Assembly (NCBI GenBank): GCA_046539005.1
Contig: JBKHHV010000001.1
Coordinates: 1-39,815, forward strand
Origin: Phycisphaerae bacterium
GTDB lineage: Bacteria; Planctomycetota; Phycisphaerae; SM23-33
Reading direction: 5' to 3'
Length of the DNA stretch: 39,815 nt
Positions 22,860-26,473 of the stretch are shown here, piece by piece (positions within the stretch are counted from its first letter, which is position 1; the number at the start of each line of letters is the position of its first letter). The notes under the pieces are model-generated. The model ran no database searches. It was not told the DNA's origin and was given only the letters and a program-made list of their open reading frames with translations. A program made the translations under genes and the position numbers.

Positions 22860-23414
22860 ATGACTGACCACGACCCATTTTCCACCGAGCGGAATTCCAA
22901 TCTGTGGGCACCCTGGCGGATGGATTACATCCGCTCGCTTCCCGACGGCATCGAGAAGGACGGGGGCTGTTTTCTCTGTCGCTATCGCGACGAGCCTGGG
23001 AACGACGACGAGAACCTCGTCATCTGGCGCGGTCCGCGGTGCTTTGCGGTGATGAACCGCTTCCCCTATACCGGCGGGCACAGCCTCATCAGCCCGCTGG
23101 AGCACGTATCTTCGCTGGCGTCCCTGGACGGGGCGACCATGCAGGAGATGATGGAGATGACCCGCGACCTGCAGGCCGCCCTCGATAGGGCCCTGGGTGC
23201 CGAGGGCTACAACGTGGGCATCAACATCGGCCGATGCGCCGGGGCGGGGCTGCCCGGACACCTCCACCTGCACATTGTGCCCCGCTGGGGCGGGGACACC
23301 AACTTCATGCCCGTGTTCGGAAAGGTCCGCGTGATCCCCGAGGCGCTGGATAAGATTCTACAGAGACTCCGGCTGGCGGCCTGCGAGCTGGACCTGCCCA
23401 AGTTGAGCCCATGA
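22860..23414 (+). CDS. HIT-family nucleotide hydrolase/transferase (Ap4A-phosphorylase-like)
   Basis: Histidine triad GHLHLHIVPRW and NRFPYTGGH. Its stop overlaps the next start (ATGA). Confidence 0.85.
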   Translation: MTDHDPFSTERNSNLWAPWRMDYIRSLPDGIEKDGGCFLCRYRDEPGNDDENLVIWRGPRCFAVMNRFPYTGGHSLISPLEHVSSLASLDGATMQEMMEMTRDLQAALDRALGAEGYNVGINIGRCAGAGLPGHLHLHIVPRWGGDTNFMPVFGKVRVIPEALDKILQRLRLAACELDLPKLSP

Positions 23415-24565
23415 CTTCCGATACCCCATCTCCGCGAGAACTGTTCGAGACCGCCCAGGACGCAAGGCTGTCGTCGGCCGCCGTCCGCGAGCGCGACAGC
23501 GGCGGGCGTCGCACCCCCGAGCAGCCCCACGCCTACCGCACCTGCTTCCAGCGCGACCGCGACCGGGTGATGCACTGCAGCGCCTTCCGCCGGTTGGACT
23601 TCAAGACACAGGTCTTCGTGCCCCACACCTGCGACCACTTCCGCACGCGCCTCACCCACACGCTGGAGGTGGCGCAGATCGCCCGCGACCTGTCCAGGGC
23701 GATGCGGCTCAACGAGGACCTCGCCGAGGCCGTCGCGCTCGCACACGACCTGGGGCACCCGCCCTTCGGACACGCCGGCGAGCAGGCCCTGGCAGACCTG
23801 ATGGCCGACCACGGCTGCTTCGAGCACAACCGCCAGTCGCTGCGGATTGTCGACTACCTCGAACACCCCTACCCCGACTTCCGCGGGCTGAACCTGACCA
23901 TGGCCGTCCGCGAGTGCATCGCCAAGCACGAAACCCGCTACGACACGCCGGTCTGCGAGGACTTCGACACCACGCAGATGGCACCGCTGGAGGGGCAACT
24001 GGTCGACCTGGCCGACGAAATCGCCTACACCGCGGCCGACCTGGACGACGCCCTGCAGATGCGCCTCGTGACGGCGGAGTCGCTGGCGGGGTTGTCGCTG
24101 TGGCGGGAGGCGATGTGCCGGGTGGAGGCACGCTGGGGTCAGGCTCGGCCGATCCACAAGGAGATCCGCTGCTGCAAGGAGGTACTGGCGATGCTTGCCG
24201 ACGACCTGATCGTCACCACCGCCCAGCACATGGAAGCGCTGAACGTCGACAGCCCCCGCGCCGCCCGCCAGGCCGGTCACAAGTGCGTAACGTTTTCGTC
24301 GCACATGCGCGAGAACCTCAGCGAGATGCAGGACTACCTGCTGCGGAACGTTTACACCTCGGAAGGGAACATCCGCCAGGACGAGCGGGCCGGACAGGTC
24401 ATCCGGGAACTGTTCGCGGCGTACCTGTCGCGGCCGGAACTTCTGCCGCATCGCTATCAGAAGCGCAGTAACGAAGATGGGTTACATCGCGTGATCTGCG
24501 ACTACATCGCCGGCATGACCGATCGCTTCTGCAACGAGGAATACACCCGCATCTGCAGTCGCTGA
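23411..24565 (+). CDS. dgt: Deoxyguanosinetriphosphate triphosphohydrolase-like HD-domain protein
   Basis: FQRDRDRVMHCSAFRRLDFKTQVF, RLTHTLEVAQIAR and HDLGHPPFGH, with C-terminal DYIAGMTDRF. Confidence 0.85.
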   Translation: MTSDTPSPRELFETAQDARLSSAAVRERDSGGRRTPEQPHAYRTCFQRDRDRVMHCSAFRRLDFKTQVFVPHTCDHFRTRLTHTLEVAQIARDLSRAMRLNEDLAEAVALAHDLGHPPFGHAGEQALADLMADHGCFEHNRQSLRIVDYLEHPYPDFRGLNLTMAVRECIAKHETRYDTPVCEDFDTTQMAPLEGQLVDLADEIAYTAADLDDALQMRLVTAESLAGLSLWREAMCRVEARWGQARPIHKEIRCCKEVLAMLADDLIVTTAQHMEALNVDSPRAARQAGHKCVTFSSHMRENLSEMQDYLLRNVYTSEGNIRQDERAGQVIRELFAAYLSRPELLPHRYQKRSNEDGLHRVICDYIAGMTDRFCNEEYTRICSR

Positions 24566-24885
24566 GGTCTGGGGGAACCGGACCTCCTTGCAGGTGGACA
24601 CCGCAGGGCTCGCCCTCCAGGCAGGGGGGGTAAAAAGTCTGCCGGGGAGGGGTTTCTGCTTCTTCTTGAACTGTCGCGACTTGCGAAACGCCGGCCGAAA
24701 ACACGCTGCTTCGTCGACAAAAAATCCATTCGTTCCGGCTTGCCCGCGCCTACAGTATACACGGAACGGGCAGGACGAATTGCCAGCGTCTTCCCGATTC
24801 TCCCTACGCTTTCCGCGGGCTCTGCGCGGTGCAGAGCCCACTATTCGGCCAGGTGGAAATGACCACCTAGTGGAAACAGGTGCAG

Positions 24886-24920
24886 ACGGGCGACCCCCCT
24901 CAGGGCCGCCCGTTTGTGTG
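24886..24920 (+). terminator. Terminator-like hairpin with a weak T-rich tail inside the 24.6-25.7 kb gap
   Basis: ACGGGCGACCC / GGGCCGCCCGT forms an 11-bp stem with one A:C mismatch, loop CCCTCA, followed by TTGTGTG. No annotated + strand gene ends nearby; dgt stops 320 nt upstream. Confidence 0.35.
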
Positions 24921-25568
24921 CGCACTGCAATGGCAGGTTTACCTCGGCAAGTCGGCCGTTGCGTTTTCGCCGGCGGTAGGCGTTGCACGTCTTCGCCGAA
25001 GTTGATCCCGCCACCGGTGGAAGTTGCCGCCCGGCGGGGGACCGCCGTCTCTACCGGGGGAAGCCCGCCCTGGTCCCAGTCGGCCGTGGCGATGTTGGGC
25101 ATCATCGGGGGCGGGGTAGCAGCAAGCGATGCCTGCTGAGGCGGAGCCACCGAGGGCTGGTAGGGGGGTGTGGACTCGCGTACGCCACCCAGCACGATGA
25201 TCGGCAGCCCGATGACCCGGTGTCGGCCGGTTCCCCCTTGGCAGTCCAAGCAGCCCCCGAAGCGTACGATTTGGGTGCCTCTTCGCCAGTCCCGCCCCAT
25301 GGCGAGCGAAGAAATGCGCAGCGGATCGGATTTTTGCAGGTTTCCTGCACGGGTAGGACGGGCGAACACCGCTTCAGACCCAATATGTGGGTTTGCCGAC
25401 CGATCCGCCACGCCAGATATTGGGGTTGGAAGCTATCTCCGAAGTCTGCGTGTAAGACCCTGTATCGCAGCGGGTTACGGCTTCATGCGTGGGGCAGGAT
25501 TGCCTAAAGCAGCCTCGCCCAACTTGCCGATAGCCTGAGTGTCTGATGCAACTGGAAGGACACATCCG

Positions 25569-25667
25569 ATGCAAACTGCGTATGGTATTCTGGCGAGTCT
25601 GACCGAGGTGCTGGTGTTCACGGCCGGCGCTATCGGTATGATTGTCGCCGCCTGCATCCTGATCTGA
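25569..25667 (+). CDS. Candidate 32-aa hydrophobic small protein (below the ORF-track cutoff)
   Basis: ATG at 25569 is preceded by GGAAGGA 8 nt upstream. Translation is MQTAYGILASLTEVLVFTAGAIGMIVAACILI, then TGA: a single predicted TM helix. I recognise no family. Confidence 0.3.
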   Translation: MQTAYGILASLTEVLVFTAGAIGMIVAACILI

Positions 25668-25729
25668 GCCCGGCGTCGAGAGGCGCCGCAGCCGGCCGTG
25701 CAAGGACCGGGGTTTCGTTTCTGTCCGTC

Positions 25730-26473
25730 TCAGCCGGGCAGGTACTCTTCCACAAGATCATTGAGCTGCGTAAGTTCTGTAATCACGTGGCGCGCGTGTG
25801 CTGGCGGTGCCATGTCCCGGTCGGTGGAGGCCTTCCACACCGGTATCATTCCTGCCCGGAACGACCCCTCCACGTCGGCCCGCAGCGAGTCGCCCACGAA
25901 GAAGGTACACCCGGCATCGAGCTTCGCTTCCCGCAGGGCCTTGCGGAAGATCCGGCGGCTGGGCTTGCGGTAGCCGACGTCGCAACTGTAGACCCGCAGC
26001 GGGAAGAACTCCAGCAGGTTCTCTTGGGCGAGGTGACGGTCGAGCACCGAGCCGGGCAGAAACGTGTTGGACACGATTCCAACCGTAAGTCCTTTTTCAA
26101 GTATGGCCTGCATCATATCCCGGGTGCCGGGCTCCACCGTCGCATGCTCTGAGAGTGGCTCGTACCACTTCCACGCCAGCTCCTCGGCCTGCTCCCGGGT
26201 GAGGTCCTGTCCCATCTTGTGGCTGATCTGCGTCATGAGGTCCAGCGAGTTGAACTCCCGTCGGGTGAAATGGCTGATGAAGTAGCTCCAGCGGATCGCC
26301 CAGAACTGGCGGCGATGGAACCTCGCCAGCGACGGAACCGGTTGCCCGATCTCCTTCAGGTAGTCGTGCGCCCGGCGGGCACCGGCCTCGAAGAGCATGT
26401 GGACGTCGACCTTCCCGAAGTTCAGGATGGTGTCGCCCAGATCGAACAGGATGCCTTGCAGACGTCTACTCAT
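25730..26473 (-). CDS. HAD-superfamily hydrolase
   Basis: Motif I ILFDLGDTIL, motif II VGIVSNT, motif IV FFVGDSLRADVEG. I chose the start at ATG 26473 (MSRRLQG). The track ORF extends to 26713. Confidence 0.8.
   Translation of the reverse strand: MSRRLQGILFDLGDTILNFGKVDVHMLFEAGARRAHDYLKEIGQPVPSLARFHRRQFWAIRWSYFISHFTRREFNSLDLMTQISHKMGQDLTREQAEELAWKWYEPLSEHATVEPGTRDMMQAILEKGLTVGIVSNTFLPGSVLDRHLAQENLLEFFPLRVYSCDVGYRKPSRRIFRKALREAKLDAGCTFFVGDSLRADVEGSFRAGMIPVWKASTDRDMAPPAHARHVITELTQLNDLVEEYLPG

Follow-up and report, generated by a model that had tools for sequence, protein, structure and literature searches.

The window analysed here is a stretch of 39,815 nucleotides (nt) of contig JBKHHV010000001.1, from the metagenome-assembled genome (MAG) GCA_046539005.1 of a Phycisphaerae bacterium (Planctomycetota), and the feature under study is a gene-poor gap at positions 24566–25729 between two converging genes, dgt (dGTP triphosphohydrolase) and a gene for a HAD phosphatase. 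We find that this gap is probably a composite in which the products of gene decay and rearrangement surround one small, real gene and in which an RNA gene is unnecessary as an explanation; we put the probability of this reading at roughly three in four. The gap itself is ordinary, being the result of gene decay at a rearrangement junction, and the small-protein gene is the sole part of it that is of wider interest. This gene is predicted to encode a conserved membrane peptide of 32 residues. The genome is estimated to be 78% complete and its nearest relatives are likewise MAGs, labelled Phycisphaerae or ‘Planctomycetaceae’, of which three belong to the same genus (G001, G002 and G003).

The gene for the 32-residue hydrophobic peptide (MQTAYGILASLTEVLVFTAGAIGMIVAACILI) lies at 25569–25667 on the plus strand, where it converges on the HAD gene, and was characterized by profile search, synteny and substitution pattern. 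Reading of the sequence places a Shine–Dalgarno element, GGAAGGA, at 25554–25560 on the same strand, 8 nt before the ATG, and purine-rich runs of this kind occupy the same place in most of the orthologous loci. A profile made from four peptides was searched against 99 genomes of the order and detected the gene in 23, which all belong to one Phycisphaerae family; within this family it spans at least 14 genera. The three same-genus genomes all retain it directly 3′ of HAD, free of insertions and deletions and with many synonymous changes. Every one of 21 copies starts with ATG, 19 of them have 32 codons and two have 33, and the stop codons vary in identity while their position is fixed. Pairwise differences at the first, second and third codon positions averaged 0.41, 0.30 and 0.60, and the peptide frame was the only one of the six to be open in all 19 sequences compared. 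Three residues of the peptide (M1, A9 and E13) are invariant, and gene callers have twice predicted the open reading frame (ORF) as a 32-amino-acid protein. A conserved start, stop and length, substitutions biased towards third positions and a ribosome-binding site are the marks of a protein-coding small ORF, and all of them are found here. On these comparative grounds we take 25569–25667 to encode a real, conserved membrane peptide that founds an undescribed small-protein family; the original prediction had listed a small hydrophobic ORF at this place, and its coding pattern and presence across the 23 genomes bear that out.

The peptide gene is single copy and its upstream neighbour differs between genera. 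The convergent HAD orthologue (42–64% identity) adjoins it in 18 of the 20 best loci and is its only constant neighbour, so that the conserved unit consists of the small ORF and HAD. Similarity searches place the family apart from known proteins: scans of all ORFs of the gap against Pfam and NCBIfam gave no match, nor did a profile search of the PDB with the peptide alignment, and a search of a large protein collection with a 42-amino-acid form of the peptide returned only the query itself and one JGI ‘hypothetical protein’ of 88% identity. The closest relative of the small ORF is on a contig of JGI 3300012009 (L046:60–300); the approximately 680 nt that precede the small ORF in this contig appear to be non-coding and contain a repeated CGGGAGTC(ATCAGG) motif, and a 191-amino-acid gene called there appears spurious. 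Two further observations concern the surroundings of the gene. In one locus (L029, G055:C38, 1501–2933) a PfkB-type kinase gene follows the small ORF on the same strand with no HAD gene between them, and in both the window and genome G063 the same PfkB-type kinase lies just past HAD, which hints at a loose association of peptide, HAD and PfkB.

The most likely form of the peptide, judging from its sequence, is a single transmembrane helix with an invariant glutamate in mid-helix. Small single-helix membrane proteins that act as subunits or regulators of larger membrane complexes include KdpF, CydX, AcrZ and MgtS. The peptide resembles this class in having approximately 30 residues, one hydrophobic helix and its own ribosome-binding site, and in being conserved within a lineage and easily overlooked by annotation. 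It differs from the class in having no similar sequence in Pfam, NCBIfam or the PDB, in lying outside any operon of an obvious membrane partner, and in having as its constant neighbour a gene for a soluble HAD phosphatase on the opposite strand, as well as in its invariant mid-helix glutamate. Its size, its hydrophobicity and this glutamate are the only features from which a function can be suggested, and with them the peptide may serve a larger membrane protein as a small subunit or as a regulator. Toxins of type I toxin–antitoxin systems are also small hydrophobic peptides, paired with an overlapping antisense RNA, and the convergence on HAD would make a 3′ overlap of transcripts possible, but such loci are usually patchy in distribution and multi-copy, whereas the peptide gene is single copy and stably linked across genera to HAD, a neighbour of housekeeping type. 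A search of the literature on small proteins and sigma factors of Phycisphaerae found nothing relevant.

At its 3′ end the peptide gene is separated from the HAD stop by a hairpin, CGGCGUC-GAGA-GGCGCCG (25671–25688), which is present in the centroid fold, and a T-rich stretch (25709–25724), giving a plus-strand feature at 25671–25724. These are possible terminators between the converging stops; taken as a whole, the inter-stop region folds no more stably than shuffled sequence, and neither it nor the small-ORF mRNA shows any special structure by this comparison (z = +0.7 and −0.4, respectively). On the other side of the gene, alignment with the JGI contig and with G001–G003 revealed conserved blocks at 25328–25427 in what was formerly a divergent intergenic region, namely a T-run (25328–25346) and CCAGATATTGGGGTT (25413–25427). 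Both blocks lie upstream of the promoter-like motif described below and are kept in the JGI contig and partly in G001–G003.

The second component of the gap is a decayed gene. G001 and G002 carry an intact gene for a DUF5684 membrane protein (PF18936, E = 9e-16) on the HAD strand just past the small ORF, and in the window a relic of the 3′ part of this gene (24986–25216, minus strand, with an alignable core at 24986–25102), identified by BLASTP, DNA alignment and synteny, stands in the same place and on the same strand with respect to the small ORF and HAD. Its translated segment MPNIATADW..LPPVETAV..GGGINFGEDV aligns to the last 59 residues of the DUF5684 protein of G002 (BLASTP E = 1e-5), and in the DNA alignment of the 3′ ends the TGA stop of the relatives stands opposite CAA in the window, at which point the homology ends. 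The distance from the small ORF to the shared motifs is approximately 340 nt shorter in the window than in the relatives, as would be expected had the 5′ part of the gene been lost together with the DUF5684 domain. With a score of >27.4 bits as the criterion for a match to PF18936, no DUF5684 domain was found in the window ORF (even at E = 10) or in a six-frame search of the genome, whereas the same searches find the copies of G001–G003. The relic therefore shares with DUF5684 proteins the C-terminal tail, the 3′ DNA end and the syntenic place of the G001 and G002 genes, and is unlike them in that the domain is deleted and the stop codon lost; tail homology together with syntenic position defines it as a relic, that is, a pseudogene fragment and not a member of the family. 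We conclude that the minus strand at approximately 24986–25216 is the apparent remnant of a DUF5684 gene. A decayed ORF had been proposed in this part of the gap, and the aligned tail confirms it as a remnant, although of another kind than was suggested: a DUF1559/H-X9-DG remnant is not supported, as the 272-amino-acid ORF that covers the region has no match to any Pfam family at E up to 10 and the DUF5684 tail explains the region. Decay is also seen around this locus in the relatives. The DUF5684 copy of G003 (L019:2984–3316) is independently broken by an internal deletion of approximately 120 codons and a frameshift, while of an 815-amino-acid exported protein that is intact in G003 only an N-terminal stub is left in G001 and G002 (L017:1880–2275 and L018:3926–4060).

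Between dgt and the relic lie approximately 420 nt of spacer (24566–24985) for which comparisons and Rfam gave no detectable coding and no known RNA. This segment has no match at the DNA or translated level in 40 relatives or in the loci that we fetched, and it occurs only once in the window's own genome. A yhaM-like gene, which neighbours dgt in the relatives, was considered as its source and gave no tblastn match. The first part (24566–24820) folds like shuffled sequence (z = −0.16). It is followed by three consecutive hairpins at 24817–24839, 24851–24868 and 24883–24916, and this cluster (24817–24916) is more stable than shuffles on both strands (z = −3.3 on the plus and −4.5 on the minus strand), in agreement with the original prediction that the gap contains stable hairpins. 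None of the stems recurs elsewhere in the genome, and the cluster has no counterpart in the relatives, including the region downstream of their DUF5684 genes. Approximately 70 nt separate the former DUF5684 stop from the start of the cluster, and on the plus strand UUUGUGUG comes after the third hairpin. The simplest reading is that they are possible terminators, either left over or still in use, between the converging transcripts of dgt and the former DUF5684 gene.

An alternative is that the hairpins and the UUUGUGUG tail (approximately 24770–24920, plus strand) form the body of an independent small RNA gene. The fold that exceeds shuffles on the plus strand would fit such a gene, as would an AT-rich patch approximately 60 nt upstream and a weak, sub-threshold likeness to the BjrC80 and CC3552 models of Rfam (E = 0.9–3.8). 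However, the best of these matches, to BjrC80, reaches 18 bits against a gathering score of 80; searches of the 40 relatives, of the loci that we fetched and of the remaining genome found no homologue; scans of the gap for a sigma-70 consensus promoter and a simple intrinsic terminator were empty; the opposite strand folds better still, as is expected of plain inverted repeats; and the cluster lies where a terminator of the former DUF5684 gene would sit. More broadly, no Rfam family reached its gathering threshold anywhere in the window, a permissive scan of the gap gave best scores of 15–18 bits against gathering scores of 45–80, which is at chance level, and ARAGORN detected no tRNA or tmRNA. 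We consider a small RNA gene here to be unlikely, and the proposal that the gap is the best place in the window for an unannotated RNA gene is not upheld, given negative Rfam and tRNA scans and a hairpin cluster that is unique and unconserved.

In all three same-genus genomes the end of dgt and HAD are on different contigs: the gene next after HIT-dgt is a yhaM-like HD gene in convergent orientation, with proS beyond it, and prmC precedes HAD. In the window genome the yhaM-like gene with proS, and prmC, sit on other contigs. The window's dgt is 76–77% identical to its same-genus orthologues, whose downstream neighbours differ, and the HAD–PfkB adjacency on the right-hand side of the window recurs in another genus (G063). 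Since the neighbours of both dgt and HAD differ in the relatives, the dgt side of the gap is a lineage-specific junction, and it is not syntenic with any relative that we examined. Closer synteny was sought with the dgt protein against metagenome contigs, which yielded distant matches only, and with the HAD protein against genome contigs, which yielded no relative; a search with an alignment (A2) recovered G001–G003 only. A contig of the Logan collection (SRR21542054_1973, 5470 nt) is 100% identical to the window across HIT, dgt, the gap and HAD, which makes an assembly chimera at the junction unlikely if this contig is a separate assembly, shared reads being possible. In the window genome, the contig end downstream of the yhaM-like gene (C84:1–338) is hairpin-rich and contains an element that is repeated twice (CCCCCATCG..CTTCGCAGGCACTTCCCCCAAGG.GGGG); this is the exact place of dgt in the relatives and may relate to the rearrangement or to an assembly break.

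One could also see 24566–24985 as a scar, left by a mobile element that rearranged the genes here and has since been excised or has decayed. This would agree with a junction that is unique to the lineage, with the location of the yhaM-like gene at a contig end rich in repeats and hairpins, and with the slightly lower G+C of the gap. It is opposed by the gap itself, which has no remnant of a transposase, integrase or tRNA, no flanking direct repeats and no terminal inverted repeats, and by the genome, in which there is no second copy and no similarity between the segment and the C84 contig-end repeats. We therefore regard an element scar as quite improbable. The idea of a scar, as raised in the original prediction, holds insofar as the remnant of a lost DUF5684 gene is present and the gene order is unlike that of every relative examined, but not for a mobile element, of which there is no sign. 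The prediction had also named two outcomes that would speak against it, an ordinary but divergent protein gene at this place in related genomes or a region that is neither transcribed nor conserved. Both are found in part: same-genus genomes do have an ordinary protein gene here and the 420 nt next to dgt are unconserved, whereas the small hydrophobic ORF is conserved.

The remaining alternative concerns the ORF of 272 amino acids that a gene caller annotated on the Logan contig (24482–25300 on the minus strand of the window, or 309 amino acids from a GTG at 25411), and which we take to be a read-through of the relic into non-coding DNA: with the stop codon lost in the relic, the frame would run on by chance over 272 codons and into dgt. 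That it is instead a real, fast-evolving, lineage-specific protein gene, with the gap no more than a divergent coding sequence, has in its favour the automatic annotation, the 272 open codons and coding-like third-position G+C (GC3) at 24980–25340, but is very unlikely, because a search of 5.8 billion protein clusters returned nothing but the ORF itself, no Pfam family matches it even at E = 10, GC3 periodicity is gone over the distal 500 nt, it is antisense to dgt over 84 nt, the DUF5684 protein of the relatives stops where the window frame reads on, and long accidental ORFs are common at 66% G+C.

The left border of the gap is dgt (23411–24565, plus strand), which scores 407 bits against NF002326 (cut-off 390) and has HD and HD_assoc domains; on the right is the conserved partner of the small ORF, a HAD-IA hydrolase gene (25730–26473, minus strand) with matches to PF00702, PF13419 and TIGR01549. 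The dgt stop at 24565 and the HAD stop at 25730 are 1164 nt apart. In a gene map based on GC3 this is the largest spacer of the window, most other gene pairs being separated by 34–250 nt and a few by 385–576 nt; the gene picker behind this map was crude, in that it took a dgt antisense ORF and missed the HIT gene. In none of its six frames does the gap reach the strong GC3 of 0.85–0.98 seen in the flanking genes, and weak coding-like values (0.75–0.82) occur only at 24980–25340 on the minus strand. The gene-poor character that first drew attention to the gap is thus real, and the A-runs and T-runs named at that time are present in the sequence. Its lower G+C is true as well but modest: the gap has 63.1% and the window 65.8%, and the lowest value, 56%, falls at 25300–25600.

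Taken as a composite of decay, rearrangement and one small gene, the gap may have arisen as follows. The DUF5684 gene beyond the small ORF would have lost approximately 340 nt, including its 5′ part and the DUF5684 domain, as well as its stop; the remaining minus-strand frame would then read by chance through unconserved DNA into dgt; and dgt would now face the relic, the small ORF and HAD across a rearranged junction unlike that of any relative. Several points count against this account. The homology of the relic consists of 59 low-complexity residues plus synteny, and the segment just upstream of its core (25103–25300), which has the best GC3 signal, has no demonstrable homology. As the genome is 78% complete, an intact DUF5684 copy could exist elsewhere in it. 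The stability of the hairpin cluster is significant, and its role could go beyond that of terminators. Finally, both what the peptide does and which sigma factor would read its promoter are matters that we infer.

Evidence for such a promoter comes from a bipartite motif upstream of the small ORF, CTAAAG-N16-GCCGATAG, at 25504–25533 on the plus strand (CTAAAG at 25504–25509 and GCCGATAG at 25526–25533). Its general form, cT[ACT]AAG followed after 18 nt by CGAT[AG], is found at 31–87 nt before the ATG in 21 of 21 small-ORF loci, representing at least 14 genera, and over these loci the spacer is fixed in length and free in sequence. With a weight matrix that was built without the window, the window site ranks eighth among 7 million positions of the genome. 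The genome has 14 and 9 sites of >18 bits at the preferred gaps of 17 and 18 nt, as compared with 1–4 at other spacings and 0–1 for a column-reversed control; of the 47 sites of >16 bits with either preferred gap, a crude ORF test places 35 in intergenic DNA. We predict that 25504–25533 is a promoter that would drive the peptide transcript from a start near 25540, with a leader of approximately 30 nt.

The motif resembles the promoters of sigma-28 (FliA/WhiG), whose consensus is TAAAGTTT-n11-GCCGATAA (PMC2859248; also PMC8325347). Both elements are found in the small-ORF motif, a conserved −35-like TAAAG and a −10-like GCCGATA(G), and the difference lies in the spacer, which is 13 nt instead of 11 nt in 21 of 21 loci. 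Flagellin genes of the same family provide a direct comparison. They carry T[CTA]AAGTT at the canonical sigma-28 spacing: T.AAG and CGAT are 16 nt apart in 17 of 25 flagellin loci, against 18 nt in all 21 small-ORF loci. The flagellin motif, T[CTA]AAGTT-N-(C/T)CGATA, was observed 118–191 nt upstream of the start of the Flagellin_N domain in flagellin genes of 17 genera (loci L053–L076) and is a usable promoter consensus for a little-studied lineage in its own right. Identification of the small-ORF motif as a canonical flagellar promoter was considered and rejected on spacing; the peptide also occurs in two genomes that have no flagellin match.

The window genome encodes a FliA/WhiG-type sigma factor (C182:9061–9726) that scores 258 bits against a cut-off of 190, and a sigma factor of this type with approximately 250–260 bits was present in all five family genomes tested, two of which have no flagellin match. 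A second copy, of approximately 215–223 bits, was detected in only two of the five (G019 and G063). In G019, which is flagellated, this second copy (G019:C5:80294–80953) lies beside a flagellin gene (G019:C5:83616–84026); the flagellin search did not include G063. The genes behind motif-like sites are mostly not flagellar. Among the 23 sites of >18 bits in the window genome (for example C117:2895, C346 on the minus strand, C2, C178, C89 and C308), the longer-spacer motif precedes three PilZ-domain genes, two murC paralogues, clpC-like genes, a MerR regulator and genes for EAL and CheY–CheX proteins, among others. The longer-spacer sigma-28-like motif may accordingly define a regulon, and it could be read by a non-flagellar FliA/WhiG paralogue. 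We propose only tentatively, and with more doubt than confidence, that the peptide gene belongs to the regulon of a second sigma factor of FliA/WhiG type, the non-flagellar one that all five family genomes tested possess, which would prefer −35 and −10 elements 1–2 nt further apart than those of flagellin promoters.

For annotation of this genome, our analysis removes a candidate RNA locus and adds a missed small gene, while the 272-amino-acid ‘hypothetical protein’ should be marked as a pseudogene relic and the rearrangement junction noted. What is new is a putative, undescribed family of small membrane proteins that occurs in uncultured Phycisphaerae of at least 14 genera, in tight linkage with a HAD phosphatase. 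To our knowledge, almost nothing is known of promoters in Planctomycetota, and the well conserved sigma-28-like motif of the peptide gene, with its unusual spacer, offers a handle on both small proteins and sigma-factor specificity in this phylum. If the proposed regulon is real, these Phycisphaerae would have two sigma-28 paralogues that are kept apart by the length of the promoter spacer, and the peptide would belong to a cyclic di-GMP (c-di-GMP) or lifestyle switch along with other genes that such sites precede, PilZ and EAL genes among them.

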